The position numbers and the translations under genes are program-made. Below the pieces are notes generated by a model that saw nothing but the letters and a program-made list of their open reading frames with translations, was not told the DNA's origin and searched no databases. 64,000 bases of DNA, taken from NCBI GenBank assembly GCA_043804695.1, contig JAZDIV010000033.1:1907-65906 (forward strand). Direction: 5' to 3'. Shown one piece after another: positions 13,988 to 55,189 of this stretch (the first letter of the stretch is position 1; every line of letters starts with the position of its first letter). Source of the stretch: PVC group bacterium. GTDB lineage: Bacteria; Auribacterota; Erginobacteria; Erginobacterales; Erginobacteraceae.

Positions 13988-14218
13988 ACCACTGCCTCCT
14001 TTTTTCTCTCCTGCGACCACGACGGTGCGCGGCCCTCCAGACTTGCCGCTGGAGGGACGCGCTCTGCCGCGTCAGAAGCAGCTTGTTTACCCTGCAGATA
14101 CAGCCGTTATTCTCCTGATAGCCCTCTTCCGGCAGTTTCGCCGTCTTTTCAGTGGGAGGGCGTTTCCTGTTCATAGGGCTTCCTTCCATCGGGTTATCGG
14201 ATGCTGAAAACGGCGTTT

Positions 14219-32785: not shown

Positions 32786-32809
32786 ACCCGATTTATGCAT
32801 AAATCGGGT
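32786..32809. repeat. short palindrome acccgatttatgcataaatcgggt
   Basis: Perfect 10-bp arms. It overlaps the stop codon of the upstream (minus-strand) gene. Confidence 0.6.
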
Positions 32810-34611
32810 CAGCGCGTCACCGGGATGTCGCCGGCGGACCCGAAATACAGCCGGGTGACGCCCCGGATCGCCCACAGCCCGGAAGCAGCCCGGAAGATAC
32901 CGATCTCCTGATTGCCGTTCCCGGAGTACCCGGCGGGGACCGGACGGTCGTTCCCGCTCCCGAAGTAGGCCCGGGTTATCCCACGGATCGCCCATAGACC
33001 CCCCGCCCCGGCGGGGCGGAAGATACCCGCCTCGGCCGTCCCGTCGCCGTCAAAATCCCCCGGAACCGGCTGACCGCTCCCGAAATAGAACCGGCTGATG
33101 CCCCGGACCGCCCAGAGACCGTTGGCGGAGCGGAAGACGGCGAGATCGAAAGCTCCGTCCCCATTGTAATCTTCCGGGACCGCCGTGTCGAGGGACGACC
33201 CGAAATAGGCCCGGGTTATCCCCCGGGCCGTCCAGAGCCCTCCTGAAGACCGGAAGATCGCGATGTCGGCGCCCCCGGCGCCGTCGTAGTCGCCGGGCAC
33301 CGGCTGGTCGCCCGGTCTCCCGAAGTAGGCTCGGGTCAGACCCCTCACCGCCCAGAGACCGGCGGAGGAACGAAAGACCGCAATCTCGGCGCTCCCGTTG
33401 CCGTCATAATCGCCGGGAGCGGTGGTGGTGCCGGAGTCGCCGAAGTAGGACCGGGTCACCCCCCGGACCGCCCAGAGGCCGGTCTCCCCCCGGAAGATAG
33501 CGATGTCGGCGGTGCCGTCGCCGTCGTAGTCCCCTCCGGCCAGGACCGGAGGAGCTTCCGGGCGCCCCCGGTAGTAGTCGGAAGCGATGCCGGCGGTGTA
33601 CGCGGTCCAGGCGGCGGGGGACGAGTTGATCCGAAGGTCCGACCAGCTCCCGTCGTCATTCTCCCACCGCTCGGAGTAGACGACCGCGACCCGGACCCGG
33701 GGATAAACGGACGGCAGGGAGGCCAGCGCCCCCGTATACCAGGCCGCCTTGTCCCCCTTCAGCGGGTACTCCCCCACCCCCCATTCGGCCAGGATCAGCG
33801 GTTTCTCGGCGGAAAGAGCACAGATCGCGCTGTACGCCGGCGTCATCAGGGCTTCGAAACTCTCCCAGTCCTCATCGGCATACTGGACCCCGTAAACGCT
33901 GAAGCCGAGCCAGTCGACATAGCCGTCCCCGGGGTAGTAGGCGGCGATCGAGTTCCAGGGCTCATCAGGAAACGACTCGTGGTTGGCGTGAAAATACCAG
34001 GTGACATTGTCCGCCCCCCGGGTCCGGAAAAGATCGACGATGTGGCGGAAGGCGTCGACGAACCGTTCCGGCCCGTCGGCTTTCGTTGGGTCGCCGTAAC
34101 CGGTGGCGGCGGCGCCGCCCTGATAGGTCCCGGACCAGGGGAACCAGTCGCCGTTCATCTCCACCCCGAAGTTGACCATCACCGGCCTCCCGAAGGCCTT
34201 CACCCGATCGGCCCAGGCGGAGAGAAAAACATCAAAGTCCCCGTCAATGATCTTCTGGAGCGAATAGGCCGGCTGATATCCTTCCGTCCAGTAGGGCTCC
34301 CCCCAGGGCATCAGCCGGAGCATCGGTACCGCCCCGTACCGCCCCATCGCCTCCAGCTGCTCCCCGGAGACCGTCTGCTCCCCCCAGAAGACCGAGAAGG
34401 GGGAGAAGGCGACCGCCTTCCCGGTCAGCTGCTCGAGATTCTCCAATTCCCCCGCGGTAACATCGTCCTCGTGTTCGCCCCAGCCCGGGAAGACCCCGGT
34501 GTAGCAGCCGTACCCGGGCGGGAGGACCGCCCCCCGGGCGCCGGGCGCGCCGGGGGGAGAAAAGACGGCGAACCCTGCCGCCAGCATAATGGCTGTGAGT
34601 TTCTTGCCCAT
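32809..34611 (-). CDS. secreted GH26-like glycoside hydrolase fused to six GDYDGDG/GLWAVRG repeat units
   Basis: GGGGGAGG RBS before ATG 34611. Signal peptide. VMVNFGVEMNGDWFPWSG and LAEWGVGEY segments are GH26/mannanase-like. Six ~40-aa repeats end in GDIPVTR-stop. Confidence 0.85.
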   Translation of the reverse strand: MGKKLTAIMLAAGFAVFSPPGAPGARGAVLPPGYGCYTGVFPGWGEHEDDVTAGELENLEQLTGKAVAFSPFSVFWGEQTVSGEQLEAMGRYGAVPMLRLMPWGEPYWTEGYQPAYSLQKIIDGDFDVFLSAWADRVKAFGRPVMVNFGVEMNGDWFPWSGTYQGGAAATGYGDPTKADGPERFVDAFRHIVDLFRTRGADNVTWYFHANHESFPDEPWNSIAAYYPGDGYVDWLGFSVYGVQYADEDWESFEALMTPAYSAICALSAEKPLILAEWGVGEYPLKGDKAAWYTGALASLPSVYPRVRVAVVYSERWENDDGSWSDLRINSSPAAWTAYTAGIASDYYRGRPEAPPVLAGGDYDGDGTADIAIFRGETGLWAVRGVTRSYFGDSGTTTAPGDYDGNGSAEIAVFRSSAGLWAVRGLTRAYFGRPGDQPVPGDYDGAGGADIAIFRSSGGLWTARGITRAYFGSSLDTAVPEDYNGDGAFDLAVFRSANGLWAVRGISRFYFGSGQPVPGDFDGDGTAEAGIFRPAGAGGLWAIRGITRAYFGSGNDRPVPAGYSGNGNQEIGIFRAASGLWAIRGVTRLYFGSAGDIPVTR

Positions 34612-34706
34612 GTCTTCTGCCTCCCCCATTGCAAACATACCATATTGCATCCCGGAGGGGATACTCACCGGGCGATGAGGAGCGCCATGATCCATCCGTC
34701 AACAGC

Positions 34707-36635
34707 CTATCTCGTCACCGGCAGGTCACCGGCCGTTCCGTAATAGACCCGGGAGCCGTCCCGGACGGCCCAGAGTCCGAAGTCCTGCCGGAAAACGCCG
34801 GGGTCATCGGCCCCGTCGCCGTTGAAATCGGCCCGGAGTGGGTAGTCGGTGCACCGGCCGAAGTAGAAGCGGGTGACGCCGCGGACCGCCCAAAGGCCGG
34901 TCGACCAGGGGCGGAAGACGGCCGCCTCCCAGGTTCCGTCGGCGTCGTAGTCCCCGGGGAGCGGCCAATCGTCGGCCCCGCCGAAGTATATCCGGGTGAC
35001 CCCCCGAATCGCCCAGAGGCCGGAGGATGGACGGAAGATGCCGAAGGCCGCCCTTCCGGCACCCTCATAGTCGCCGGGGACGGCCGAATCCCCGGAGGCG
35101 CCGAAGTAGGCGCGGGTGACCCCGCGGGCGGACCAGAGGCCGGCGGGCGGACGGAAGATGGTGACGTCGGCGGTGCCGTCACCGTCATAGTCGGCCGGGG
35201 CCGGCGTGTCGCCGGCCACGCCGTAGTAGCTGCGGGTGACCCCGCGGACCGCCCAGAGGCCGGAAGCGGAGCGGAAGATGCCGATGTCGGCGGTGCCGTC
35301 ACCGTCATAGTCCCCGGAGACGGGCGCGTCCCCTGACCCTCCGAAGTAAGATCGGGTGATATCTCTCACCGCCCAGAGACCGGTGTTCCCCCGGAAGACG
35401 GCGATGTCGGCGGTGCCGTCGCCGTCGTAGTCACCCGCCTCCAGGATGAAGCCGGGGCGGGGCACGGTCGGTCCGCAGGTCGGGGTGGGGCCGGGGGTCC
35501 GGGGTGTTGCCGTCGGTGAAGATATCGGAGCAGGCGTCCGGGACGGCGGGGGGCTCGCGGTCGGGAACGGGGCAGCCGTTGCCGAGGGGGAGGGGGATGG
35601 AGTGCCGGTGACCATCGGCGTAGGCGACGGCAAAGGAAGCATATACGTGTCGACGATGCCCCCCCCGCGGGAGACAAACGTGAAAGTGATGTACCCTCCA
35701 TCGGCTTCGATCAACATGGCCCCGTAATCCCCGTTGTAACGGACCCTGCTCTCAGGCAGCGGGGTGTCGAAGCTGTAAATGCTCCGCCCCCCCAGCCCAT
35801 TGACGAAATAGGGAAGATCGCCTACCAGGAGGCGCTCATACGTATGCGCGTGCCCGCTGATGACCGCCGACGCCCCCCAGGGACCGAAGGGCCACTGCAT
35901 TCGGACGGTTGATCCATGAACCTCGTCTGACGAGTAGGGCGGCTCGTGAAAGCTCACAATCTTCCAGGGAGCGGCGGAAGCAGCCAGGCCGGACTGGAGC
36001 CACGCGGCCTGAACCGAGGTATCGTCGGTGCCGTCGGGCTCGCGGATGTCGCTGTCGAGAAAAAAAAGATGAACCGGCCCGTACTCGAAGTCATAATAGC
36101 GCTCGTTGCCGGGCAGGGTGAAATAGTTGAAGTACGGGCCGCTGCAACCGCCGGCGCAGGTTAGGGAATCCCAGTCGTGGTTCCCGAGCGAGGGAAAGAA
36201 GCGGTTCGACTCCGCCCCGGGCCCGTACGCGCCGGTATAAGGATACATAAATTCGTGGTAATACTGCCCGATGTTGTCGTCGATAGTGGAGGCGGCTCCG
36301 GACGGGTAGTTATTGTCGCCGGCGGTGATAATCAGGTCCGGCCCCCAGCCCTGCACCAGGACAGCGACGTCTTCCTCCGGGGCGCCCGCCCACCCGAAAT
36401 CGCCGATGACCGCAATCCGGACGGAGAGGGGCGGTGAAGGTGAGGGCAACGGGGCGCTGCCCCCGTAAACGGCATCAACGTAATAACGATTAAACGTGAA
36501 CCCGGTCGACGGGAAAAGGGCGGAGGGATAGCCCAGAAGACCGATAAGAAAGAGCATCGCCAGAGACAGGCCGAAGAAAAGACGGGAGAACCTCAGGGAG
36601 CGGCCGTAAAATTCTGTCGAGGAGATTGCCATCAT
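34707..36635 (-). CDS. secreted calcineurin-like metallophosphoesterase fused via a Pro/Thr/Ser linker to six GDYDGDG/GLWAVRG repeat units
   Basis: IAVIGDFG...AGDNNY...GNHDW...HEPPYSS...SGHAHTYER motifs. Linker PSPTPMVTGTPSPSPSATAAP... Six repeats end in GDLPVTR-stop. Confidence 0.85.
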   Translation of the reverse strand: MMAISSTEFYGRSLRFSRLFFGLSLAMLFLIGLLGYPSALFPSTGFTFNRYYVDAVYGGSAPLPSPSPPLSVRIAVIGDFGWAGAPEEDVAVLVQGWGPDLIITAGDNNYPSGAASTIDDNIGQYYHEFMYPYTGAYGPGAESNRFFPSLGNHDWDSLTCAGGCSGPYFNYFTLPGNERYYDFEYGPVHLFFLDSDIREPDGTDDTSVQAAWLQSGLAASAAPWKIVSFHEPPYSSDEVHGSTVRMQWPFGPWGASAVISGHAHTYERLLVGDLPYFVNGLGGRSIYSFDTPLPESRVRYNGDYGAMLIEADGGYITFTFVSRGGGIVDTYMLPLPSPTPMVTGTPSPSPSATAAPFPTASPPPSRTPAPISSPTATPRTPGPTPTCGPTVPRPGFILEAGDYDGDGTADIAVFRGNTGLWAVRDITRSYFGGSGDAPVSGDYDGDGTADIGIFRSASGLWAVRGVTRSYYGVAGDTPAPADYDGDGTADVTIFRPPAGLWSARGVTRAYFGASGDSAVPGDYEGAGRAAFGIFRPSSGLWAIRGVTRIYFGGADDWPLPGDYDADGTWEAAVFRPWSTGLWAVRGVTRFYFGRCTDYPLRADFNGDGADDPGVFRQDFGLWAVRDGSRVYYGTAGDLPVTR

Positions 36636-43647: not shown

Positions 43648-45426
43648 ATGAAAAAGCTGCTGGTAGCCGTCATCTTTTCCGTGATCCAGTTGGGTGCTGA
43701 TGGAAAGGCCGAGGCCTGTTCGGATGTTTTCGTCAACCAGGGGAGCGAGAAAGTTTCAGGCCGGAACATCGACTGGCCGATCGGCAATGCCATCCGGATG
43801 TCGCTGAATCCCCGGGGCGTGTACCAGACCGCCGTGCCCCTGCTGCCCGGAGATCAACCGGTAAGCTGGGTCTCCCGGTACGGGAGTATCACGCTGGGAT
43901 TGTATTTTATCGGCTCCTATATTCACCTGGACGGGATGAACGAGCACGGTTTGAGTGTGGGGATGCTGATGATGCTCGATGCGGTCTATCCGCCCCCCGA
44001 TTCCCGGCCGTACCTGAACGATGACAGATGGCCGCAGTACTACCTCGACAACTGCCGGACCGTCGCCGAGGTGGTGGCCATTGCGCCCACAATGAGAGTA
44101 TTCTGCCTGGTGGGGGGACACCTGGTTTTACACGATGCCTCCGGCGACTCCGCCGTAATGGAGTATGTTAACGGCGAATTGAAAATATACCTACCCCCGG
44201 AATATAACGGCGTGCTGACCAACGATCCCGACTATGAAGAACAATTGGCCAATCTCGCCAATTATGCGGGGTTCGGAGGGGACCTCCCTCTGCCCGGCGG
44301 CGTTGAATCCGAGTCCCGCTTCGTGCGGGCCTCCTGGTACCTCCAGACGCTCCCCGTGCCGGAATCGCTCGAAGAGACGATCGGCTCGACCCTGGCCATC
44401 ATGCAGAATGTAGCCAAACCTCTCTTCGACCGGGAGCAAAGTTGTACCCTGAGCACCAGCATTCGCGACCACACCGCTAAAAGGTATTACTGGCGCTCGT
44501 TCTGCCAGCCCAATCTCAGATACGTTGATCTGGATGCGGTGGACTTTTCGCCCGGCAACCCGGTAAGAGTGCTCGACCTCTATGCCGACCTGGTGGGCGA
44601 TGTTGAAAGCTACTTCAAGCCTGATCCCTCGCAACTGGTTATCCCCCGGGGGGACTATGACGGGGACGGGACCTCGGATATCGCCGTCTTCCGGGCGTTA
44701 TCCGGGATGTGGGCGGTCCGGGGGATAACCCGGGTTTACTTCGGTTCTCCGAAGGACCTGCCGGTGCCCGCAGATTATAGGGGTGACGGCACCACGGACA
44801 TCGCGGTTTATCGGGGCAATTCCGCCCTCTGGGCGATTAGAAACGTAACCCGGGATTACTTCGGAGGCCCGGCCGGCCGACCGGTCCCCGGAGATTACAA
44901 TGGTGACGGCAGTTCCGACATCGCCGTCTTTCAGGATAGAATTGGCCTCTGGGCTATCAAAGGCATAACCAGGACCTATTTCGGAAGCAGGGGTGATTTG
45001 CCGGTTGCCGGGGACTATGACGGGGACGGGACGATCGATATCGGGGTTCTCCGGCGCCGGATCGGCAGTGACCAATGGATCATTAAGGATCTCAGCCGCT
45101 TCTATTTCGGGGACGGGATGGGGATAGCTGTGCCCGGAGATTACGACGGCGACGGAACCTGGGAAGCCGCCCGTTACGCTCCTCTTACCTACGACTCCGC
45201 GCTCGGACGATGGGTAGTAAGGGGAATGAGCGATGTAATTTACGGCCTGGCTACCGATCTGCCGGTCCCGGCCGATTATGCCGGCGACGGCTCCGTCCGC
45301 CCGGCGATCTTCCGGGAGGATTCCGGCCTGTGGGCGGTCCGGGACCTGACCCGCTGCTACTTCGGCACCTGGTACGATCTGCCCTCCACCCGCCATAACT
45401 CACGGAAGCATGCTCGCCCCCGGTAA
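43648..45426 (+). CDS. secreted Ntn-hydrolase (choloylglycine hydrolase / linear amide C-N hydrolase family) fused to six repeat units
   Basis: AAAGGAGG RBS. The signal peptide ends ...GKAEA-CSDVFV, with the nucleophile Cys at the mature N-terminus. Six more divergent repeat units follow. Confidence 0.85.
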   Translation: MKKLLVAVIFSVIQLGADGKAEACSDVFVNQGSEKVSGRNIDWPIGNAIRMSLNPRGVYQTAVPLLPGDQPVSWVSRYGSITLGLYFIGSYIHLDGMNEHGLSVGMLMMLDAVYPPPDSRPYLNDDRWPQYYLDNCRTVAEVVAIAPTMRVFCLVGGHLVLHDASGDSAVMEYVNGELKIYLPPEYNGVLTNDPDYEEQLANLANYAGFGGDLPLPGGVESESRFVRASWYLQTLPVPESLEETIGSTLAIMQNVAKPLFDREQSCTLSTSIRDHTAKRYYWRSFCQPNLRYVDLDAVDFSPGNPVRVLDLYADLVGDVESYFKPDPSQLVIPRGDYDGDGTSDIAVFRALSGMWAVRGITRVYFGSPKDLPVPADYRGDGTTDIAVYRGNSALWAIRNVTRDYFGGPAGRPVPGDYNGDGSSDIAVFQDRIGLWAIKGITRTYFGSRGDLPVAGDYDGDGTIDIGVLRRRIGSDQWIIKDLSRFYFGDGMGIAVPGDYDGDGTWEAARYAPLTYDSALGRWVVRGMSDVIYGLATDLPVPADYAGDGSVRPAIFREDSGLWAVRDLTRCYFGTWYDLPSTRHNSRKHARPR

Positions 45427-45544: not shown

Positions 45545-45588
45545 GGGAGTGAAAAAGCCGGCCTTTGTGGGCCGGCTTTTTCACTCCC
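45545..45588. terminator. bidirectional intrinsic terminator between convergent genes
   Basis: Perfect 19-bp stem gggagtgaaaaagccggcc / ggccggctttttcactccc with A- and T-runs on both sides. Confidence 0.8.
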
Positions 45589-46357
45589 TTCTCAGGTCGG
45601 TTATAGTAAAGCGGGTCTCCCCTATTTCACGCCGACCGAGACCCAGATCATAGTCGAGTGGGGGCGTCGAGCTTCCTCCCCGGACGACAAGACCCGGCTG
45701 GCTGGTATCACCATATACATGAAGTTTTGCGCCGGGACTGGTGGTCCCGATACCGACGTTCCCGGTCCGCTGGAAGGTGACCCGGTAGGCATCCTGAGTC
45801 TCATCGTAGAGGTAGAGCTTGTTGGCGGAACCATTGTAATAAATGCTCATGGCAATGGCGCCGCTCTCCCAGAATTCCACCAAGGAATTAGAGTTGACGC
45901 CGGATCCGTGAAGCGCCAGGGTGGCAGCATTGCCAGCGTCACCGGTATCCCAGACGTCCAGGTCGGAAGCGGAGGCAGTTGTCCCGATACCAACGGTGCC
46001 CGAATTGTAATAGATACCGCTTCCGCTCGGGAGCCAACGCCCGCCGTCACCCCCCAGGGAAATATCAGCGGAATTTCCGAAATAGGCCCGGGTCACGCCA
46101 CGGACGGCCCATAAACCGGTGCCCGGCCGGTTGACGGCTATCTCGTCGGTTCCGTCGCCGTTGTAGTCCCCGGGAGCCGGGTTGTCTCCCGTACCGCCGA
46201 AGTAAGCCCGGGTCACGCCACGGACGGCCCACAGACCGACATTGGGCCGGAATATACTGATGTCGTCGGTCTCATCGCCGTTAAAGTCGGCGGCCGGGGA
46301 GACTAGTCCGCGACTCAAGCTGAACAATACGACCAAAATCATCGCCGATCTCTTCAT
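45581..46357 (-). CDS. secreted protein: two repeat units plus a GTVGIGT/GNVGIGT fibre-like region
   Basis: Signal peptide MKRSAMILVVLFSLS. Two repeat units (ADFNGDETDDISIFRPNVGLWAVRGVTRAYFG...). Resembles the N-terminal half of 12722-13987. Confidence 0.75.
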   Translation of the reverse strand: MKRSAMILVVLFSLSRGLVSPAADFNGDETDDISIFRPNVGLWAVRGVTRAYFGGTGDNPAPGDYNGDGTDEIAVNRPGTGLWAVRGVTRAYFGNSADISLGGDGGRWLPSGSGIYYNSGTVGIGTTASASDLDVWDTGDAGNAATLALHGSGVNSNSLVEFWESGAIAMSIYYNGSANKLYLYDETQDAYRVTFQRTGNVGIGTTSPGAKLHVYGDTSQPGLVVRGGSSTPPLDYDLGLGRREIGETRFTITDLRRE

Positions 46358-46748: not shown

Positions 46749-47051
46749 TCACTCCTGCAGTTTGACCTCGTTCCCGGTGGCCAGGCTCCGGAGCCTGACG
46801 GCGCCCCCAGGGGTCCGGGTGGTGAAGAGGGGACCCTGCGGAGCGAAGGAATCGAACGATTCGCCCTCGATCCGCAGGAGCGTTTTCCCGGTGGCGCTCT
46901 CCCACAGTATCACCTCGCGCGGCGCATCGACGGTCTTTCCCAGCACCGATTCGATCGTGATGATTTTGCCGTCGGGAGAGAAGGCTGCAGCCGACCCGGG
47001 GAGCGGACGGCCCTTTTCCGGGGCCGCATAAAGTGATATACTGTGCTGGGG
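46749..47051 (-). pseudogene. 5'-truncated WD40/PD40-like repeat fragment
   Basis: The stop-to-stop frame reads ...[43 protein letters not shown]... There is no ATG. It abuts the divergent gene at 47058. Confidence 0.35.
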
Positions 47052-47057
47052 TCATAC

Positions 47058-48821
47058 ATGAAACCGAAGTTACCATCCTGGTGGAGCATCTTCTTCTTTC
47101 TTCTGTCGGTGTGCGACGGCGCAGGCGATACGGTGTGTGCCGGCACAAATCCCCTCACCGGCTTCGAGACCCGTTCCGACGGGGCGACCCGGATCACCGA
47201 CGCGCTCCCCCGCAGCTGCCAGAACCCGGTCTTTTCTCCCGACAGTCAATACATCCTCTTCACGCGATTCATCAACGGCTACAATGACGGCCCCTCAGAA
47301 TTGGTGCGGATACGGATCGATGCCACGGCTGAGACGGTGATCGTCTCTTCCGCCGATGCCGATAACGTCAACGTACCCTTCGGCTCCTGGGCCTCGGGGA
47401 AGATCTGCTGGGCATCGGACCGGGGCGGGGGGGCGGAAGAGGTCTTCGTCGCCGACGAAGACGGGACGAACATCCGCCAGGTGACCGACCACCCCACGAG
47501 CCAGGGATACTATATCGAACCGGTCTTCAACCCCGCCGACACCAACAAAATCCTCTTTGAGATTTCTCCCTCTGACTCATCGGCACACCTGATCGCGCTG
47601 GTCGAGCGAGACAAAGGAGACCGGGTCACCATCCTGACCGGTGGTACAACGTATGACGACCGCCTTCCGTCCTGGTCACGCGACGGCTCGAAGATTCTCT
47701 TTCAGAGAACCGGCATCTCCGGCCCGGAGAACTGGGAGATTTACACCGCGGCTATAACTCTCGGCGACTCACCCTGCCTCAGTAATTATGTCAACATCTC
47801 CAATGCCACGTCACAGGAAACCGACAACTCCTGGTCATACCTGGACACACGGGTTCTCTCCTCCAGCGATTACGGGAACCTTCCCGTCCCCAATATCTAT
47901 GCCTTTCCCTCGAGCGGGGCGGGCCGGCCGCGCCGGGTGACTTACTCCAATGTTTACGAAGACGGCGCCCCTGCCTATTCCCCCGATGGGAAATGGATCG
48001 CGTTCGAGTCGCATTCCACCGTCAACGAGGACTCGCCATCGGCGATCTGGATCATCCCCGCCCGGCCGACGGCCGACCCGATATCTTTTCGCGGGGGTGA
48101 TTACACTGGCGACGGTACGTCCGACATCGCCGTCTTCCGGCCTGTGTCGGGTCTCTGGGCGGTCCGGGGTATCAGCAGGGCTTACTTCGGAGGAGCTTGC
48201 GACCTCCCCAAACCCGGAGATTATGATGGAGACGGGACGGGAGAGGCCGGTATCTTCCGCCCGGAGGCAGGTCTCTGGGCGATCCGCGGTGTCACCCGGT
48301 GCTATTACGGCTCCGCCGATGCTCAGCCGGTGCCCGGCGACTACAACGGTGACCGTCTGTGCGATCTCGCTCTTTTCCGTTGGGGCGCCGGTCTCTGGGC
48401 GGTCCGGGGGATAACACGTGGATACTTCGGCTCCGCGGACGATCAGCCGGTCTCCGGTGATTATAATGGTGATGGAACTCTGGATCCGGCCATTTTTCGG
48501 CCCCTGACAGGTCTCTGGGCAATCCGGAAGATCAGCAGATTCTACTTCGGGGCGGTGAGCGACGGCGCTTTCCCGGGAGATTACAACGGAGACGGAACCG
48601 CAGAGGCCGCGGTCTTCCGGGGCGTCTCCGGCCTCTGGGCGGTCCGGGGTGTCACCCGGAGATACTTCGGGGCCGCAACCGACCATCCTGTCCCCGCCGA
48701 TTACAACGGAAACGGCGGGGATGATATCGGGATATTCCGCGCCAGTTCCGGCCTCTGGGCGGTCCGGGGTATCAGCCGGGTCTATTTCGGCGCCCCGGGA
48801 GACCTCCCCGTCACCCGCTGA
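47058..48821 (+). CDS. secreted TolB/PD40-like beta-propeller protein fused to six repeat units
   Basis: Signal MKPKLPSWWSIFFFLLSV. PD40-type FSPDSQYILF, PSWSRDGSKILF and YSPDGKWIAFES. Six repeat units end in GDLPVTR-stop. Confidence 0.85.
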   Translation: MKPKLPSWWSIFFFLLSVCDGAGDTVCAGTNPLTGFETRSDGATRITDALPRSCQNPVFSPDSQYILFTRFINGYNDGPSELVRIRIDATAETVIVSSADADNVNVPFGSWASGKICWASDRGGGAEEVFVADEDGTNIRQVTDHPTSQGYYIEPVFNPADTNKILFEISPSDSSAHLIALVERDKGDRVTILTGGTTYDDRLPSWSRDGSKILFQRTGISGPENWEIYTAAITLGDSPCLSNYVNISNATSQETDNSWSYLDTRVLSSSDYGNLPVPNIYAFPSSGAGRPRRVTYSNVYEDGAPAYSPDGKWIAFESHSTVNEDSPSAIWIIPARPTADPISFRGGDYTGDGTSDIAVFRPVSGLWAVRGISRAYFGGACDLPKPGDYDGDGTGEAGIFRPEAGLWAIRGVTRCYYGSADAQPVPGDYNGDRLCDLALFRWGAGLWAVRGITRGYFGSADDQPVSGDYNGDGTLDPAIFRPLTGLWAIRKISRFYFGAVSDGAFPGDYNGDGTAEAAVFRGVSGLWAVRGVTRRYFGAATDHPVPADYNGNGGDDIGIFRASSGLWAVRGISRVYFGAPGDLPVTR

Positions 48822-49039
48822 TCCGGATCCGGCTTATTCAATCTCGCAGGCTGGCCGCTTCGCGTCCATGCCGTGCAGGTGATTACACACTAAAATAACT
48901 CCCCCGGCAGTTCCCCTCCCCGTCAGAACCGTTCCTCCCAGGCGTCTATTGTTTAACGGCATCTGCCTCAAGGCAGTTGCCGGGTTTATACTCCTCATCT
49001 TTTCCTCCCTTAAAAAATTAAAAAAAATCAAAAAAAGTA

Positions 49040-49068
49040 TTGACTACTTCGTCTAAATCGACTATATG
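49040..49068 (+). promoter_or_regulatory. candidate sigma70-type promoter with an A-rich upstream tract
   Basis: TTGACT - 17 nt - TATATG, preceded by aaaaaattaaaaaaaatcaaaaaaag. Confidence 0.4.
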
Positions 49069-49240
49069 GTCATAATCAACTAAATAGTCGATCATGACCA
49101 AGTTGTCGTACTCAACCAATCAGTCAATATCGACCGATGTGTCGTACTCAACCAATCAGTCGATTATGACCAATGTGTCGTACTCAACCAATCAGTCGAT
49201 TATGACGATGTTGTCGTATTAGACTGATCGGTCATTATGT
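49069..49240. repeat. tandem 36-bp repeats (three near-identical units plus degenerate flanking copies) filling the tetR leader
   Basis: Units start at 49103, 49139, 49175 and 49210, e.g. gtgtcgtactcaaccaatcagtcgattatgaccaat. An internal 18-bp half-period shares ACCAATnnGTCG. Confidence 0.85.
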
Positions 49241-49906
49241 ATGAATGCAACGCTGAAAAGCCGGCACACCCGGCGAGCCCTGGCTACCCGGGGCAAACTG
49301 CTCGAAGCCGCCCGGACCCTTTTCACGGAACGGGGGTTTGAACTCACCTCCATTGACGACATAACGCGCCGGGCCGATGTCGGGAAGGGGACTTTCTATT
49401 ACCACTTCACCGACCGGGAAGAGATCATCAAGGCCCTGATCGAGTGGGTGATCGGAGAACTGCTGGCCGTTATCGATAACACGTGCCGGGAAGCCACGGA
49501 TCTGAAAACAACTCTGGAGGGTTTGATCGAAGCTCACATCAAGTTCTTTTCGAACCGGTGGGAGGACTTCGTGCTCTTCTTCCAGGGGAGAACCGAGCTT
49601 ACCATCGAGCTGAGTTATGACGGGATTGAGACTCCGTTCCTGAAGTACCTGGAGCGGGTCGAAGAGCTGCTGGTACCTTTTCTCCAGCGAAGGCTGCCGC
49701 CGCCGATCATGCGACGGATCGCCTGCGCGGTAGTGGGGCTGGTCTCCGGTTATTACTCTTTCGCGGCCATCGAATCGCTGGATGACGGTATAGATGCCAC
49801 GTTCGCCTCGCTCCGCGAGGCGATGGTGGCGAGCATGATGCGCTTCGTCCAGGAAGCAAGCACCACGACCGAGAATAGGAGCCAGGAGAAAGAGGCTGGA
49901 CAATAA
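49241..49906 (+). CDS. TetR/AcrR-family transcriptional regulator
   Basis: N-terminal HTH TRGKLLEAARTLFTERGFELTSIDDITRRADVGKGTFYYHF. Confidence 0.9.
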   Translation: MNATLKSRHTRRALATRGKLLEAARTLFTERGFELTSIDDITRRADVGKGTFYYHFTDREEIIKALIEWVIGELLAVIDNTCREATDLKTTLEGLIEAHIKFFSNRWEDFVLFFQGRTELTIELSYDGIETPFLKYLERVEELLVPFLQRRLPPPIMRRIACAVVGLVSGYYSFAAIESLDDGIDATFASLREAMVASMMRFVQEASTTTENRSQEKEAGQ

Positions 49907-49983
49907 TTTACACATTAACAGGCGCACAGCACCGAGGCCATTCGGCCCGCTGACTGTGCGGTAACCTCAAGAGGAGAACCTCA

Positions 49984-50487
49984 TTGAAAACTATCGATGA
50001 GATAGAAAAAACCGATCCGATCGCCATTCCGGGAACCCGGCGACGGCGTCTTAACGGAATCAATCGGAAACCCGGCGACGGGCCAACGATTAAAGAGGCG
50101 GAAGGACGGCGCGTCTTCAATGAAGCGGTCAAGAAGTCCGTCTGGGGGATGGCGGCCAGCATCGACATCTACAACTGCGATCCGGCCACGATCCGGGACG
50201 CCGACAAGATCCGCCGGTTCGTCGCCGAACTCTGCGACCTGATCGGGATGAAGAGGTTCGGCGAAACTCAGGTGGTCCACTTCGGCGAGGACGAGCGGGT
50301 GGCGGGCTACTCCATGATCCAGCTGATCGAGACCTCGCTGATCTCCGCCCATTTCGCCAATCTGACCAACACCGTTTACCTCGACGTCTTCAGCTGCAAA
50401 CCGTACGATCCCGTCAAGGCGGAACGGTTCGCCCTCAAGTTCTTCGGGGGCACCCGCTGCATCACCAAGATCAACCTGAGGATGTGA
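49984..50487 (+). CDS. AdoMetDC-like (SpeH family, PF02675-type) pyruvoyl-dependent decarboxylase homologue
   Basis: Core IDIYNCDP...AGYSMIQLIETSLISAHFAN...YLDVFSCKPYDP parallels the SpeH self-cleavage region (E-S). The start is uncertain: TTG 49984 gives a ~55-aa extension, and ATG 50149 is the alternative. Confidence 0.7.
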   Translation: MKTIDEIEKTDPIAIPGTRRRRLNGINRKPGDGPTIKEAEGRRVFNEAVKKSVWGMAASIDIYNCDPATIRDADKIRRFVAELCDLIGMKRFGETQVVHFGEDERVAGYSMIQLIETSLISAHFANLTNTVYLDVFSCKPYDPVKAERFALKFFGGTRCITKINLRM

Positions 50488-50490
50488 CCC

Positions 50491-51447
50491 GTGCTCGAAT
50501 TCCGCATCATCACCGACCCGGACGAGTGCCGGGAGATCTGGGAACGGGTCATCCCCCGGGAAACCGTGACGGATCTCTGGGAGATCCGGGACTGCTTTCA
50601 CCGGCACTTCCGGCGTCCGTCCTGCTTCATAACGGCCGTCAGCGGGGGGGAGGTCGTCGGCTTCCTCCCCGTGAGCCGGATCGAGGAGGCCGGCGTCTAC
50701 GGCTACTTCCCCGGCGAGACCTGGGAGGGCGAAACCTGGCTGGAACAGAACCGGATCATCGCCCGGGATGACGGGATCCTCCGGGGTCTGCTCGAACGCT
50801 GCCCGGGGCGGCATCACCTCCGCTACCTCGTCAACGGGGGGGAGGGGTGCGCCGTGGATGAGATCGGCTACCTTTTCTCCCCCCCTTCCTACGGGTACGA
50901 CTTCGATAAGTACCTGGCCGAGTTCTCCGGCAAATCGCGGAAACGCCTGAAGCGGGACCTGGAATCACTTGAGAACCGCGGTGTCGAGTACCTCCATGAC
51001 CGGGTCGAGGATTTTGATCACATCGTGCGTCTCAACATCGGGCGGTTCGGCGAGCGGTCATACTTTTCCGACCCCCGTTTCACGCAGAGCTTCTACAGCA
51101 TTCTCGATCTCCTCCGGGAACGGGGATGGCTCCGCCTGACCACCGTCCTAATCGAGGGCCGGGTGGCCGCGGTCGACATCGGCTGCGTGTACAACGGCGT
51201 CTATACCCTGCTCGGCGGGGGGACGGACGGCGATTACCCCGGGGTGGCCAAGCTGATCAACATCCACCATATCCGCCGGGCGTGCCGCGAGCGGCTGGAC
51301 CTGGTCGATTTCCTCTGCGGCGATTTTTCCTGGAAATCGCTCTTCCATCTCTCGGTGCGCCCGCTTTATCTCCTGTCCGGCTCTTTTCCCCGGGAAGCGC
51401 ACAGACCGGCGCCGGCCGACCGGAGGGAAATGGTGTATGCCGGATGA
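50491..51447 (+). CDS. GNAT-fold acyl/aminoacyl transferase (Acetyltransf_6 / FemAB-CelD-like)
   Basis: GTG start 3 nt after the upstream stop. C-terminal half RVAAVDIGCVYNGVYTLLGGGTDGDYPGVAKLINIHHIRRA. Confidence 0.7.
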   Translation: MLEFRIITDPDECREIWERVIPRETVTDLWEIRDCFHRHFRRPSCFITAVSGGEVVGFLPVSRIEEAGVYGYFPGETWEGETWLEQNRIIARDDGILRGLLERCPGRHHLRYLVNGGEGCAVDEIGYLFSPPSYGYDFDKYLAEFSGKSRKRLKRDLESLENRGVEYLHDRVEDFDHIVRLNIGRFGERSYFSDPRFTQSFYSILDLLRERGWLRLTTVLIEGRVAAVDIGCVYNGVYTLLGGGTDGDYPGVAKLINIHHIRRACRERLDLVDFLCGDFSWKSLFHLSVRPLYLLSGSFPREAHRPAPADRREMVYAG

Positions 51448-52726
51448 GCGCGTCCTGGTCGCGGGGACAACGGCCGACTACATCGACCTCATCCGTCGCC
51501 GCTTTCCCGGCCGGGCGGTTTTCCTGACCGATCCGGCGGAACGGGCCAAACCTTCCCCCTACCCGGCACCCGACCGGGCATCCGAAATTCTCTGCGGCCT
51601 GTCCTCCCCCCGGGAGGCGCTGGCCGCCCTCGACGGTCATCTCCGGAGGCAGAAGCAACGGCTCACCGGGGTCGCCTGTTTCGACTGCGAATCCCTCTCC
51701 CTGGCGGCGGAGATCGCCCGCTCTTTTTCGCTCCCTTTCCCTTCCCTGGAAGCCGTGGACGCTTCCCGGAACAAGTTCTTTTCCAAGCGCCTCTGGCTGG
51801 AAGCCGGTCTCCCCTGCCCGGAGGTGCGGCTGGCGCGGACGGCGGACGCCGCGGCGGATTTCCTCCGGGGGATGACCCGGGCGGCCGTCATGAAGCCTCT
51901 GACCGGGAGCGGGAGCGAGCTGATCTTTCTCTGCCGTGATGAAAAGGACTGCCGGAGAGCATTCGCCACCTTAAGCGAAAAGCTATCCTCCCATCCTAAC
52001 AGCAGGATGTATGAACCGCGGACCTGGCGGGGGGAGGAGATCGATCCCCGCAAAGCCTTCGTGATCGAGGAGATGGTGGAGGGAGAAGAGCTGAGTTGCG
52101 ATTTCGCGCTCGATCACGGCGCGGTGAAGATCATCCGGATCGCGAGAAAGATACTCGCCCGGAACCAGACCTTCGGCACGGTCCTGGCCTACATCCTGAC
52201 GAACGCGCTCCCTTCCGGCATCGATCCGGCCGGTTTCCGCCGGCAGATGGCGGAGGCGGCCCGGGCCCTCGGCATTTCCCGCAGCATCTGCATGATCGAC
52301 TTCATGGTCTCCCGGGGAAGGGCCCTGATGCTGGAAATGACCCCCCGGCCGGGGGGCGACTGCCTGGTCTCCCTGGAACGGCTGAGCGCCGGCTTCGACA
52401 TGCTGGGCTACGCGCTCGATTTCGCCGAGGGACGTCAGGAAGATCCGCCCCCGGCCGGGAGCTGGCAGCCGCTGGTGGGGATCCATTTACTGGCGGACCG
52501 TCCCGGCACGATCCGGGCGATCGACGACCGGAAGCTCCGGGGCGATCCCCGGGTGCTCGAATACAGCCTGACGGCCGGGCCCGGCCGGCGGGTGCTGATG
52601 CCCCCCGACGACTACGATTCCCGTAAACTGGGGCACGCGGTCTTCCGGCCGCGCGATCCGGCCGGGATCGAAAAAGAGTGCCTCGAACTGTCCGCCCGAC
52701 TTATAGTGGAATTTGAGCCTGAATGA
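51437..52726 (+). CDS. ATP-grasp domain ligase
   Basis: NKFFSKRLWLEAGLPCPE...AVMKPLTGSGSELIF...EEMVEGEELSCDF is the ATP-grasp core. It overlaps both neighbouring genes. Confidence 0.8.
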   Translation: MPDERVLVAGTTADYIDLIRRRFPGRAVFLTDPAERAKPSPYPAPDRASEILCGLSSPREALAALDGHLRRQKQRLTGVACFDCESLSLAAEIARSFSLPFPSLEAVDASRNKFFSKRLWLEAGLPCPEVRLARTADAAADFLRGMTRAAVMKPLTGSGSELIFLCRDEKDCRRAFATLSEKLSSHPNSRMYEPRTWRGEEIDPRKAFVIEEMVEGEELSCDFALDHGAVKIIRIARKILARNQTFGTVLAYILTNALPSGIDPAGFRRQMAEAARALGISRSICMIDFMVSRGRALMLEMTPRPGGDCLVSLERLSAGFDMLGYALDFAEGRQEDPPPAGSWQPLVGIHLLADRPGTIRAIDDRKLRGDPRVLEYSLTAGPGRRVLMPPDDYDSRKLGHAVFRPRDPAGIEKECLELSARLIVEFEPE

Positions 52727-54039
52727 TGAAAAACACCAAAAAAACCCGGGCCGGCGCATCGGTTACCCCATCCGAAAATCTTCCCCTTGATGGGGATACC
52801 CTAAAACGGTTCGTGCGGAAGTTCCTGGACCGGCGGGAGCTGTATCTGCGGGCCGCGGAGAGGTGCGGCTCACCCCTTTACCTGATCGAGAAACCGATCC
52901 TGACCGCCCGGGCGAAACAGTTCACGGAAGCCTTCCGGGCCGTGCTCCCGGACATCCGTGTTTACTTCGCCGTCAAGAGCAACAATCACCCGGCGGTCGC
53001 CCGGACGCTGGTCAAGGCGGGGCTTGGATTGGATGTCTCCAGCGGCCGCGAGCTCCGGATGGCGCTGGACAGCGGGGCAGAAGATATCGTCTTCAGCGGT
53101 CCGGGGAAGACCGGCGAGGAGCTTTTCCTGGCAGTCGAACACCGCGACCGGGTGACGGTCCTGATAGACAGTCTCGGTGAACTGGAGCACCTGGAGTCGA
53201 TCGCCGGTGAGACCGGAGCTGCTGTCCGGGCCGGGGTGCGGCTGACCACCGATGAGCGGGCCCTCTGGGCCAAGTTCGGCATCCCCCTCTCCTCCCTGCC
53301 GGCCTTTCTGGCCGCCGCCGGGCAGACCGGGCATGTCCGGCTGAGAGGATTCCAGTTCCATACCAGCTGGAATATGACCCCGGACAACCAGGTCAGCTTC
53401 ATCATCCGTCTGGCCGGGGCGATCGGAAGCCTGGATGATGAGTCTCGGAAAAAGATCGAGTTCATCGATATCGGCGGGGGCTTCTGGCCGGAAGACGGGG
53501 AGTGGCTCCACCGGGAGGACGGGGGAGTGGTCAACCCGGACAACCGTGACCGGGACCCCCTCCTTCACTTCCGGAAGCCCTCCGTCCCGATTCGGGAGTT
53601 CGCGGAAAAAATCGGCCGAGCCTTCAGGGAGAAGATCCTCCCCCTGACCGGCTGCCGTCTCTGTGCCGAGCCGGGACGATGGCTCTGTCATCCGGCCATG
53701 CAGATCCTGCTCCGGGTCACGGACAGGAAAGGGCCGGATTTGGTCATTACCGACGCCGGGACCAATGCGATCGGCTGGGAGCGCTTCGAGACTGATTACT
53801 TCCCGGTGATCAACCTTTCCCGGCCCGGGCTGACCGAACATCCCTGCCGGGTCCTCGGCTCGCTCTGCACGCCGCACGACGTCTGGGGCTACTCCTACCA
53901 CGGAGAGGACATCCGGCCGGGGGACCTGCTCCTGCTTCCCAACCAGGGGGCTTATACCTACAGCCTCCGCCAGGAGTTCATCAAGCCGCTCCCCGGGGTG
54001 GCAACGGTGGATGCGGCGGGGGAGATCGCCTCGTCGTAA
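52723..54039 (+). CDS. fold-type III PLP-dependent decarboxylase (Orn/DAP/Arg decarboxylase family)
   Basis: GSPLYLIEKPIL...YFAVKSNNHPAV (PLP Lys)...GLDVSSGREL...IDIGGGF...EPGRWL. Confidence 0.9.
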   Translation: MMKNTKKTRAGASVTPSENLPLDGDTLKRFVRKFLDRRELYLRAAERCGSPLYLIEKPILTARAKQFTEAFRAVLPDIRVYFAVKSNNHPAVARTLVKAGLGLDVSSGRELRMALDSGAEDIVFSGPGKTGEELFLAVEHRDRVTVLIDSLGELEHLESIAGETGAAVRAGVRLTTDERALWAKFGIPLSSLPAFLAAAGQTGHVRLRGFQFHTSWNMTPDNQVSFIIRLAGAIGSLDDESRKKIEFIDIGGGFWPEDGEWLHREDGGVVNPDNRDRDPLLHFRKPSVPIREFAEKIGRAFREKILPLTGCRLCAEPGRWLCHPAMQILLRVTDRKGPDLVITDAGTNAIGWERFETDYFPVINLSRPGLTEHPCRVLGSLCTPHDVWGYSYHGEDIRPGDLLLLPNQGAYTYSLRQEFIKPLPGVATVDAAGEIASS

Positions 54040-54090
54040 CCGGCGCAAAACAGAAGAACAGTCGAGCGCAAGTTGCTCCTCAGGTCAAAT

Positions 54091-54115
54091 AAAAACCGGT
54101 CACAGCCGGTTTTTC
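54091..54115 (+). terminator. rho-independent terminator
   Basis: aaaaaccgg-tcacag-ccggttttt. Confidence 0.75.
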
Positions 54116-54124
54116 ATTTCCTTT

Positions 54125-54167
54125 CCTTATTTAACAAATAAGGTCAAACCTTATTTGTTAAATAAGG
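54125..54167. repeat. pair of mutually complementary 19-nt palindromes
   Basis: ccttatttaacaaataagg - tcaaa - ccttatttgttaaataagg, between convergent genes. Confidence 0.7.
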
Positions 54168-54199
54168 AGGTGGGGCAACGCACCGCCGGCACCTTTTCG

Positions 54200-55189
54200 T
54201 TAGAACCTGCTCACCGCCCGGACGGAGAGAACAGGCCCGTCGCCAACGTCAACCCGGTTGTCCGTCCGGTCGTCGTTGTAGCTCTCGCCTTCGAAGAAGA
54301 AGCGGTCGAAAGCGTAACCCCCGGACAGTGTCACTTCAATATCACCAGCAGGATGTAGGGAGATCCCTCCTTCAGCCCGCTGCTCGTACCAGAAGAGCCG
54401 GTCATCACGATCTTCCCTCCCGGCCCGGTAATAGCGGTCGTTCTCCCAGCGGAAGGAGGCAAAGATGCCGATCAGCGGAGAAAGCTGATACTCGCACCCG
54501 GCAAAGACGCTGTGGATGGGGAAATAGAACCCCCGAAGCTGCAGTCCCTTCGCGGGGCTATAATTCACGAAGAGCAGAGGAATCCCGACCAGAGCGCTGA
54601 AATCGCGGGAAGGGGCGTGGAGATACCCGGCCCCCGGGATGGGCACGTGGGGGAGGAACTCCCGGTTGGTGGAGTAGTTGAGGAAGAAGACCCAGGAATC
54701 CCGTCCAGCCGCGGGGATGTTGAGATAACCGTTGAGCATGACGGCCGTTTCGTACCAGCCGTTGAACGGCCGGTCGGAAGGCGAGGAAAGGGAGAGATTG
54801 CCCCCGATTATCCAGTTTCCGGAAAGGCGCCGGCGATACACCGCTCCGAAATGAAGATCCCAGAGTTCGGCAGGCATCTCGTCTCCCGTGTTCGGGAGAA
54901 CGGCTCGGGTATGGATGTCACGGAGGCCGAGGCGTGAGACAGCGGTCCATTCCCGGTCCGGCCCCTGGACCAGCGGGATGAGAATCGACGCCTCCCAGCG
55001 TGACTCCTCCAGACCGGTAACCTGGTCCTTAACCCGCTCCCGCGGGCTGTACTCGAACCGGCCCGAAACCGCCGTCCCCTGTTTCCCCGTCAGCGGCTGA
55101 AACCAGTGGGAGATCCCCTCCTGACCGGAGACGGTCATCGGTATGAATGCCAGGAAAAACATGTACATTAATATTATAATTCTTCTCAT
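54200..55189 (-). CDS. outer-membrane beta-barrel protein, unknown function
   Basis: Signal peptide MRRIIILMYMFFLAFIPMTVSG. Alternating aromatic-rich strands. C-terminal ...AVSRF (terminal Phe). Confidence 0.7.
   Translation of the reverse strand: MRRIIILMYMFFLAFIPMTVSGQEGISHWFQPLTGKQGTAVSGRFEYSPRERVKDQVTGLEESRWEASILIPLVQGPDREWTAVSRLGLRDIHTRAVLPNTGDEMPAELWDLHFGAVYRRRLSGNWIIGGNLSLSSPSDRPFNGWYETAVMLNGYLNIPAAGRDSWVFFLNYSTNREFLPHVPIPGAGYLHAPSRDFSALVGIPLLFVNYSPAKGLQLRGFYFPIHSVFAGCEYQLSPLIGIFASFRWENDRYYRAGREDRDDRLFWYEQRAEGGISLHPAGDIEVTLSGGYAFDRFFFEGESYNDDRTDNRVDVGDGPVLSVRAVSRF

Follow-up and report, generated by a model that had tools for sequence, protein, structure and literature searches.

A widely distributed four-gene cassette headed by a SpeDC-type pyruvoyl enzyme: a candidate pathway to putrescine-based amides

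The stretch of DNA analysed here (64,000 nucleotides, positions 1,907 to 65,906 of contig JAZDIV010000033.1 in assembly GCA_043804695.1 from a PVC group bacterium; hereafter the window) contains an operon of five co-directional genes on the forward strand, in which a TetR-family repressor gene is followed by four enzyme genes (Table 1). The first of these (gene 1) encodes a SpeDC-type pyruvoyl enzyme, and the others a FemAB-like tandem-GNAT transferase, an ATP-grasp ligase of the L-amino-acid ligase (Lal) type and a fold-type III pyridoxal 5'-phosphate (PLP) decarboxylase. A first-pass annotation, made from the sequence alone, had described the four genes as tightly coupled behind the TetR gene, and the open reading frame (ORF) list reproduces the spacing exactly, with a 3-nt gap and then overlaps of 11 and 4 nt at the three successive junctions. 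The TetR gene is separated from gene 1 by a 77-nt spacer, and gene 1 begins with a TTG codon 7 nt 3' of a GAGGAG Shine-Dalgarno sequence. The intrinsic terminator that had been placed at the end of the operon is present as a hairpin plus T-run, with the stem AAAAACCGGT-CACA-GCCGGTTTTT at 54091-54114, 52 nt past the stop codon, followed by CATTTCCTTT. All Pfam domain calls exceed their gathering scores, so the four enzyme assignments made at first pass stand, gene 1 now being nameable more exactly as SpeDC.

Table 1. Features of the operon and its control elements, in window coordinates
Feature	Position	Strand	Description
Putative sigma-70-type promoter	49040-49068	+	TTGACT 49040-49045, 17-nt spacer, TATATG 49063-49068
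Array of 11 RAC-N6-GTY operator-like sites	49042-49233	.	18-nt register; presumed TetR sites
TetR-family repressor gene	49241-49906	+	221 aa; first gene of unit; Pfam TetR_N 2.5e-16
GC-rich hairpin in TetR-SpeDC spacer, without U tract	49921-49962	+	fold energy -32 kcal/mol
Gene 1, SpeDC-type pyruvoyl enzyme	49984-50487	+	167 aa; TTG start; Pfam AdoMet_dc 9e-22
FemAB-like tandem-GNAT transferase	50491-51447	+	318 aa; Pfam Acetyltransf_6 5e-24
ATP-grasp ligase, Lal type	51437-52726	+	429 aa; Pfam ATP-grasp_4 1e-12, LAL_C2 4e-7
Fold-type III PLP decarboxylase	52723-54039	+	438 aa; Pfam Orn_Arg_deC_N 4e-28, Orn_DAP_Arg_deC 3e-7
Intrinsic terminator, operon end	54091-54124	+	10-bp stem, 4-nt loop, T-rich tail

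Gene 1 scores 78 bits against AdoMet_dc (cut-off 25), and its AlphaFold2 model, with a core pLDDT of about 90 or above, finds its best Foldseek matches in the S-adenosylmethionine decarboxylase (AdoMetDC) of T. maritima (1vr7 and 1tlu; target-normalised TM-score 0.84, rmsd 1.7 A, 19% identity), which gives it the four-layer alpha-beta-beta-alpha architecture of the small prokaryotic enzymes of class 1b. Searches of solved structures by sequence, whether with the single protein or with a profile, gave no match. Profile-sequence pairing in hhalign places S118, H123, C138 and S110 of gene 1 opposite Ser63, His68, Cys83 and Ser55 of the T. maritima enzyme, and all four are invariant across the family (22 homologues compared); S63, H68 and C83, which self-cleavage and catalysis require, are named as the essential residues by Li, Liang, Phillips and Michael (J Biol Chem 2023, PMC10407285). 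In the IETS motif, around which the first-pass annotation had placed a self-processing site, the serine is the processing residue, and from the alignment we predict that the gene 1 product cleaves itself between T117 and S118 (IET/S, the slash marking the cut). Glu62, His64 and the WPE motif of the T. maritima enzyme are replaced in gene 1 (ESH by ETSL, WPE by ANL). A true AdoMetDC (SpeD) was considered and rejected, as the NCBIfam model SAM_DCase_Bsu is matched at only 27 bits against a cut-off of 75.65 and the ES/H...HTWPE signature is absent; no speE gene was found among the scanned window neighbours.

The same study showed that numerous proteins homologous to AdoMetDC act as pyruvoyl decarboxylases, either of L-ornithine (SpeDC, derived from class 1b AdoMetDC) or of L-arginine (SpeDA). 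Its Figure S5 presents two SpeD1-SpeD2 fusions whose SpeD2 half is an ornithine decarboxylase (kcat/Km 3600 and 600 M-1 s-1; inactive on Arg and Lys), and an S229A mutant of one fusion had no detectable activity; by residue count on the Figure S5 sequence, S229 falls in the ...QLIETS motif of the gene 1 homologue. BLASTP aligns gene 1 to D. phosphitoxidans SpeD2 at no less than 61% identity over 94 aa and to Ca. Omnitrophica OLB16 SpeD2 at no less than 51% over 112 aa, both values being lower bounds because the Figure S5 text was machine-read and damaged. A validated SpeD2 half reads ...IRDADKIKQFVHELCDKIEMKRFGECQVVHFGEDERVEGFSMTQLIETSLISGHFAN..NTVYLDVFSC..YDP and belongs to the same family as gene 1; the signature common to gene 1 and the validated domains is ...FGEDERVxG(F/Y)SMxQLIETSLISxHFAN..NTVYLDVFSC..YDP, and the processing Ser and the His and Cys are likewise the same. 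SpeDC enzymes have four diagnostic residues in their central region, Gln, Thr, Phe and Tyr (Fig. 8 of PMC10407285), which may correspond to Q113, T117, F124 and Y132 of gene 1; apart from position 124, these positions are conserved in all 22 sequences compared.

On these comparisons gene 1 is a member of the SpeDC L-ornithine decarboxylase family, close to the assayed enzymes, with the same activity predicted, and therefore the amine is most likely putrescine. The original description of an AdoMetDC-like pyruvoyl enzyme was accurate as to the fold and the IETS site, but the protein is not an orphan AdoMetDC-like one. In PMC10407285, speDC genes are reported only in polyamine clusters (speD/speE, casdh/casdc and hss) and this cassette goes unmentioned, whereas here the gene heads a cassette of GNAT, ATP-grasp and PLP-decarboxylase genes in hundreds of genomes. 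No later paper using the name SpeDC was found in the literature searched.

The transferase matches Acetyltransf_6, a FemAB-related family, at 86 bits (cut-off 22), but has no match among solved structures by sequence, single or profile, nor among NCBIfam models, including those for Fem and PEP-CTERM proteins. Its AlphaFold2 model (pLDDT 82) is placed by Foldseek closest to the aminoacyl-tRNA-dependent peptide synthases Sbb17 and Sba18 of the streptothricin type (1e-11), followed by FemX/FemA, A-PGS/MprF and the tandem GNAT of the clavulanate pathway, with E-values from 1e-11 to 1e-9, identities of 10-19% and TM-scores of about 0.5-0.6. The model settles the fold class as tandem GNAT, FemAB-like, and together with Acetyltransf_6 bears out the earlier call of a FemAB/CelD-like GNAT. 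The protein is a candidate amide-forming enzyme that would depend on either aminoacyl-tRNA or acyl-CoA, as its fold neighbours, at TM-scores of about 0.6, include enzymes of both kinds. The window GNAT is 100% identical to an NCBI protein of a "PVC group bacterium" metagenome-assembled genome (MAG), and the family is absent from the viral contigs searched. A second, more distant GNAT subfamily of about 295 aa (P0277-P0388; L085 and L086) was also seen, scoring 120-200 bits against the cassette GNAT profile at 28% identity, on fetched contigs that are all shorter than 2 kb.

The ligase scores 48 bits against ATP-grasp_4 (cut-off 27) and 30.6 against LAL_C2 (cut-off 29.4). The single sequence found nothing useful among solved structures and a profile was needed; the family profile matches 4dim (7e-27), BL00235 (3vot, 3.5e-25), BacD and a further L-amino acid ligase (4wd3) over residues 64-425, nearly the whole protein, and 3wo1 is also among these full-length matches. 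These matches identify the enzyme, as the first reading of the sequence had it, as an ATP-grasp ligase, and more closely as one of the Lal type. It has the combination of ATP-grasp_4 with LAL_C2 in common with the Lal ligases BacD/YwfE, BL00235, RizA, TabS and DdaF, but it scores far below the equivalog cut-offs (for DdaF, a weak 23 bits against 840). Its partner here, to which it is joined in one protein at some loci, is a FemAB-like GNAT, and we know of no described Lal with such a partner. Proteins of 749-756 aa in which GNAT and ATP-grasp are fused occur at three loci (L004, L087 and L163), and GNAT and ATP-grasp probably act as a complex because they are occasionally fused. By description only, these fusions can be likened to Ngg, in which a GNAT and an ATP-grasp domain share one polypeptide. 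Ngg is a bifunctional enzyme of N-acetylglutaminylglutamine amide synthesis and makes a small N-acylated dipeptide osmolyte, but its GNAT is a simple one using acetyl-CoA, its ATP-grasp domain is RimK-like and its partner is an amidotransferase rather than decarboxylases.

The PLP decarboxylase retains the complete catalytic set of its fold, K85, H213, GGG 251-253, EPGR 316-319, C382, D386 and Y411 being invariant in 25 family members. In fold-type III enzymes the corresponding elements are the PLP lysine, the cofactor-stacking His, the Gly-rich phosphate loop, EPGR, the catalytic Cys and GAY. Assignment as a diaminopimelate (DAP) decarboxylase, LysA, was rejected: the lysA equivalog is matched at 146 bits against a cut-off of 298, the DAP-binding segment LIRPALY, which carries the distal-carboxylate Arg and the Tyr, is replaced by GWERFE, and the substrate loop reads CTPHD in place of CESGD. 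Among characterised decarboxylases, FslC acts on N-citrylornithine (rhizoferrin), SbnH on citryl-diaminopropionate (staphyloferrin B) and BtrK on gamma-glutamyl-acyl carrier protein (ACP; butirosin). In a search with the family profile FslC ranks first (7kh2, 1.8e-40), DAP decarboxylase 2p3e second, SbnH third (6knh; PMC7139808) and BtrK fourth to fifth (7ru7). Three of the four best relatives thus use already-joined amino acids, and we therefore liken the enzyme to decarboxylases of tethered amino acids; by sequence it resembles an enzyme acting on an amino acid attached to another group. The substrate loop, LCTPHD here, reads LCTPKD in SbnH, LCTPED in BtrK, CMQHD in FslC and CETGD in DAP decarboxylase, so that an LCTPxD or CxxHD loop is held in common with these three enzymes, which are among the best structure matches. 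The initial assignment to LysA-like fold-III decarboxylases was right about the fold, but the enzyme is nearer to FslC, SbnH and BtrK than to LysA.

The pathways of these three relatives differ from the cassette in their other components, using NRPS-independent siderophore (NIS) synthetases (FslA, SbnC/E/F; NRPS, nonribosomal peptide synthetase) or an ACP with BtrJ, none of which is found here, and neither citrate chemistry nor a carrier is apparent. A carrier module of the BtrI/BtrJ/BtrK type was rejected, as neither the operon nor any of 160 related loci contains an ORF resembling an ACP or another small ORF that is conserved, which agrees with the absence of a carrier protein noted at first pass, and the likeness to the butirosin module is limited to the decarboxylase.

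The repressor scores 60 bits against TetR_N (cut-off 24). Upstream of its gene, a TTGAC(T/C/A/G)-N17-(TATAYG, TAAAT(G/T) or GATATA) element recurs in 11 of 12 related loci from several phyla (the exception is L016), and from this conservation across loci alone the window copy, TTGACT-N17-TATATG, is taken as the putative operon promoter. A sigma-70 consensus scan of 48700-54400 reported no promoter, having missed this element because its -10 hexamer ends in G. The array of RAC-N6-GTY sites overlaps both the -35 and the -10 elements, with all 11 sites in exact 18-nt register; the stricter GAC-N6-GTC has 7 matches within these 192 nt compared to 34 in the other 63.8 kb, and the array is also detectable as 36-nt direct repeats. 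Chains of 2 to 5 such sites at 18-nt spacing were found in 11 of the 12 TetR-type homologous loci checked (from PVC bacteria, Planctomycetota, Zixibacteria, Ignavibacteria and Armatimonadota), in most of which the first two sites overlap the TTGAC -35 and the TATA-like -10. A dedicated, autoregulated TetR repressor with conserved predicted operators is therefore very likely.

With gene 1 as anchor, 45 of 85 loci (the window and 84 others) have a co-directional TetR orthologue upstream; with the GNAT as anchor, 58 of 59 do. However, in 33 of the 85 (about 40% of genome loci) the place of TetR is taken by a divergent sigma-54 activator, so the proposal of a TetR-gated operon is supported for the window, with its conserved operator-like array at the promoter, but TetR is only one of two alternative regulators. 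Inspected spacers at the sigma-54-activator loci carry promoters of the GG-N10-GC type before gene 1, in the looser form TGGCAY-N6-TGCT; the strict TGGCAC-N5-TTGCW pattern recovered few of these promoters. The N-terminal domains of the activators gave weak receiver-like matches only and no clue to a ligand. At some of the loci (L074, about 9279-10010, and L051, about 1893-2650) the sigma-54 promoter is separated from the SpeDC gene by a short ORF rich in charged residues, with runs of Asp/Glu followed by Lys/Arg.

The cassette is conserved as a unit over a wide taxonomic range. Relatives of gene 1 number 3,907 in the protein collection and occur in at least 592 species-level genomes (one genome per species), and the GNAT occurs in at least 497 metagenome contigs. 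The best 80 gene 1 genomes are all MAGs and span more than 15 phyla, which include PVC, Omnitrophota, Zixibacteria, Planctomycetota, Desulfobacterota, Deferribacteres, Ignavibacteria, Lentisphaerae, Nitrospirota, Armatimonadota, Acidobacteriota, Sumerlaeota and Krumholzibacteriota; gene 1 is also found in an archaeon, Methanosaeta. With the window proteins as tblastn queries, the order gene 1, GNAT, ATP-grasp, PLP decarboxylase was recovered in 65 of the 67 evaluable genome loci (those with at least 4.1 kb downstream of gene 1), the two exceptions being L072, where gene 1 stands alone, and L025, a second copy that has decayed. A second sample, chosen against anchor bias and anchored on the GNAT in metagenome contigs, had gene 1 directly upstream in 70 of 73 cases and both ATP-grasp and PLP decarboxylase downstream in 41 of 41. 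The co-conservation elsewhere that was in question for this set of genes is thus established in both samples. Median identity to the window proteins is 70% for gene 1 and 50, 43 and 54% for the GNAT, ATP-grasp and PLP enzymes.

Clustering of all ORFs in 84 loci identified no further conserved partner gene, most of the recurrent clusters being antisense shadow ORFs. The only recurrent neighbours in the 85 loci are the two regulators, a major facilitator superfamily (MFS) transporter (9 loci) and a RimK-type module in Zixibacteria (6 loci). Since no gene besides the MFS transporter recurs, the substrates must be common metabolites. In the Zixibacteria loci L002 (12012-16233) and L003 (8653-12874) the cassette is followed on the same strand by genes for an RLAN-domain protein, a RimK-like ATP-grasp, a GNAT-DUF3335-peptidase_C39 protein and an MFS transporter; this extension may be a further part of the pathway or a mere neighbour module.

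Variants of the cassette were also observed. Gene 1 is missing in L087, L145, L163 and perhaps L118. L087 (7001-10575) and L163 (6001-8271) encode fusion proteins of 752 or 756 aa and have no SpeDC gene, with the PLP decarboxylase next in L087 (L163 was read as far as the fusion), while in L145 (302-2067) the TetR gene is followed directly by the GNAT, again without SpeDC. These SpeDC-less variants fit SpeDC as a replaceable supplier of the amine. The decayed copy in L025 shares a Deltaproteobacteria MAG chromosome (CP070689.1) with L040, the two TetR-type cassettes lying about 22 kb apart; the L025 copy has a truncated ATP-grasp gene and lacks the PLP decarboxylase, while the L040 copy is intact. 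An Omnitrophota MAG (L060) carries a full cassette at 3192-7166 and, 3 kb downstream, a second, solo SpeDC gene at 9977-10390 beside a Fur-family regulator and cysS, with a DUF4914 gene between the two.

We propose that the operon is a self-contained, ligand-gated biosynthetic unit for a small cationic putrescine-based amide, a reading to which we give a probability of about 0.5. SpeDC would process itself at IET/S to generate its pyruvoyl cofactor and would then convert L-ornithine to putrescine, as judged from homology to the assayed enzymes. The GNAT, with aminoacyl-tRNA or possibly acyl-CoA as donor, and the Lal-type ligase, with a free amino-acid carboxylate and ATP, would each in turn form an amide, such that one or two amino acids become joined to the diamine or to the first adduct. 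The PLP enzyme would then remove the alpha-carboxylate of the tethered amino acid, plausibly a gamma-Glu, beta-Asp, DAP, Orn or Lys unit, to leave an aminoacyl- or (omega-aminoacyl)-putrescine, a polyamine-like pseudo-peptide. One transcript would be made from the promoter lying within the TetR operators and would be switched on when a ligand releases TetR, the sigma-54 activator serving in other lineages. The gene order and the orientation of the GNAT-to-ATP-grasp fusion fit a sequence of decarboxylase, transferase, ligase and decarboxylase, although the two amide steps could equally well run the other way round. Gene structure, protein families, catalytic residues, co-conservation and the operator array come directly from the analysis; the substrates beyond ornithine, the sequence of reactions and the function in the cell (as a stress protectant, a polyamine substitute, a signal or an antibiotic) are inferred. 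The first-pass annotation had likewise inferred an N-acylated or peptidyl amine or polyamine conjugate as the product, and the present evidence also favours this.

Several observations weigh against this proposal. Acyl-CoA-dependent tandem GNATs (VipF and the clavulanate-pathway GNAT) appear in the same Foldseek list as the tRNA-dependent enzymes, and TM-scores reach only about 0.6. A search with the single PLP protein scores DAP decarboxylase and BtrK equally, and it is a bona fide DAP decarboxylase that ranks second in the profile search. The identity of gene 1 to the assayed SpeDC proteins was measured on machine-read figure text and is not exact, and the pyruvoyl enzyme could act on conjugated rather than free ornithine. 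Coupling of an amino acid to a diamine lies outside the activity of known Lal ligases, which join alpha-amino acids in pairs. There is no conserved exporter, hydrolase or immunity gene to hint at the role of the product, and every step of the pathway is a prediction from sequence comparison.

The cassette could instead be an alternative housekeeping route to a polyamine, in which the ATP-grasp ligase would join putrescine to the side-chain carboxylate of Asp or Glu and the PLP enzyme would yield beta-alanyl- or 4-aminobutanoyl-putrescine; this amide analogue of spermidine or homospermidine would replace CASDH/CASDC or SpeD/SpeE, with the GNAT acylating it for storage or homeostasis. SpeDC genes otherwise lie in polyamine clusters, often beside the fold-III decarboxylase CASDC, the PLP enzyme resembles post-conjugation decarboxylases, BtrJ and BtrK provide a precedent for gamma-glutamylation followed by decarboxylation, and a spread over at least 592 species genomes is what might be seen for a core trait. 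However, we consider this route unlikely, as an essential polyamine would not usually be gated by a repressor or a sigma-54 activator, the cassette has no reductase that could convert the amide to an amine, the PLP enzyme does not match the NCBIfam carboxy(nor)spermidine decarboxylase model and a FemAB-like transferase is foreign to known polyamine synthesis; the presence of two copies in one genome, one of them decayed (L025 and L040), suggests an accessory trait. Another reading is that the cassette makes a secondary metabolite that serves as a diffusible signal or an antibiotic, such as an autoinducer or toxin of the aminoacyl-amine kind to which its own TetR would respond, as in the circuits of ScbR and ArpA; this reading bears on what the product is for and is compatible with the chemistry proposed above. 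The TetR protein matches the ScbR-type receptor model of NCBIfam over its full length, if below the cut-off (67 against 150 bits), the overlap of operator array and promoter implies autoregulation, and small peptide natural products typically involve an ATP-grasp paired with a tRNA-dependent transferase (the literature searches retrieved work on phosphonate peptides); the MFS transporter follows the cassette in 9 loci. But no resistance or export gene is conserved in most loci, and a strict four-gene core without tailoring enzymes in more than 15 phyla is broader and more uniform than usual antibiotic clusters, while some 40% of genome loci have the sigma-54 activator instead of TetR, so that this role too appears improbable.

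Two further explanations give the enzymes other targets. If the FemX-like enzyme and the ATP-grasp ligase, acting in the manner of Ddl or Mur, altered a peptidoglycan precursor or a lipid, putrescine would be attached covalently to the cell envelope and the LysA-like enzyme would trim DAP. Among the nearest folds to the GNAT are indeed FemX, whose substrate is a peptidoglycan precursor, and MprF, by which phosphatidylglycerol is aminoacylated, and diamines linked to peptidoglycan in some anaerobes offer a parallel. DAP decarboxylase is roughly as close to the PLP enzyme as the other top matches are, and the second NCBIfam match is the exosortase A system-associated decarboxylase, found together with FemAB-like genes in loci for exopolysaccharides. 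Yet no mur, fem, flippase, glycosyltransferase or membrane-protein gene recurs beside the cassette, the GNAT reaches none of the Fem or PEP-CTERM models, the DAP-binding Arg and Tyr are lost from the PLP enzyme, the ligase is of the Lal rather than the Ddl or Mur type, and the carrier phyla differ widely in their envelopes, with gene 1 present even in Methanosaeta; envelope modification is accordingly very unlikely. Alternatively, gene 1 might serve as a scaffold or carrier rather than a decarboxylase, its new C-terminus or pyruvoyl end being modified by the ATP-grasp and GNAT enzymes in the way of LysW or BtrI. This would account for gene 1 being far better conserved than its partners, and a BtrK-like decarboxylase normally needs a carrier-bound substrate, for which the operon has no separate carrier gene. 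We give the idea almost no credence, since close homologues are active ornithine decarboxylases by themselves, all catalytic residues are invariant, and a carrier-dependent pathway could not tolerate the loss of gene 1 seen in some variants of the module.

Each of the enzymes belongs to a known family or superfamily, gene 1 to SpeDC; their four-gene combination, its spread and its operator architecture were not found described in full-text literature searches. None of the four enzymes reaches an NCBIfam equivalog, and the suspicion that the pathway is unassigned is upheld by the lack of a characterised cluster matching the set in NCBIfam or the literature searched. We would class the system as NRPS-independent amide assembly with decarboxylases, and place the cassette among the more widely conserved unassigned small operons. 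It links pyruvoyl ornithine decarboxylases to a second context, outside polyamine clusters, which suggests that some SpeDC enzymes supply a conjugate pathway instead of the synthesis of spermidine. In phyla without cultured members, the product could act as a new signal or be a new analogue of the polyamines. As a bolder and somewhat doubtful extension of the proposed pathway, the cassette may define a new metabolite class of putrescine "pseudo-polyamines", aminoacylated in a tRNA-dependent manner and amide-linked, which would be widespread in uncultured anaerobic phyla (PVC, Omnitrophota, Zixibacteria, Desulfobacterota, Planctomycetota and others) and would act as an inducible polyamine substitute, stress protectant or signal under the control of a TetR spreading on operators phased at 18 nt. 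As a 4-kb unit requiring no special precursors and having a dedicated repressor with an obvious operator, the system is directly testable.

The spacer between the TetR and SpeDC genes contains a hairpin (-32 kcal/mol, z-score -5.6), and hairpins that differ in sequence occupy the same position in L001, L005, L006, L007, L011, L024 and L045. It may be a partial terminator or an element of mRNA processing or stability, or may set the ratio of repressor to enzymes; an Rfam scan of 48800-54300 identified no RNA family, with one chance-level match. Directly 3' of the operon terminator there is a perfect 22-bp hairpin (54123-54169; CCTTATTTAACAAATAAGG.. / ..CCTTATTTGTTAAATAAGG) facing a convergent gene at 54200-55189, which may be the terminator of that gene or a protein-binding palindrome.

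The genes flanking the operon are unrelated to it, and comprise a resistance-nodulation-division (RND) efflux system, secreted FG-GAP/PD40 repeat proteins, the convergent gene, which has no known function, a hydrolase and a Mo/W-type ABC transporter. Membership of the system was considered for the efflux, FG-GAP, hydrolase and transporter genes and rejected, as they are conserved with the cassette in the closest relatives only. A 40-aa FG-GAP-like repeat, GDY(D/N)GDGT.D.A.FR...GLWAVRG.TR.YFG, is present in 21 copies in six genes of the window, at 12722-14020 (-), 32809-34695 (-), 34707-36635 (-), 43648-45426 (+), 45581-46357 (-) and 47043-48821 (+). The repeats are joined to varied N-terminal domains, including a choloylglycine-hydrolase-type amidase and PD40, and the family presumably consists of secreted proteins that have expanded in this lineage.

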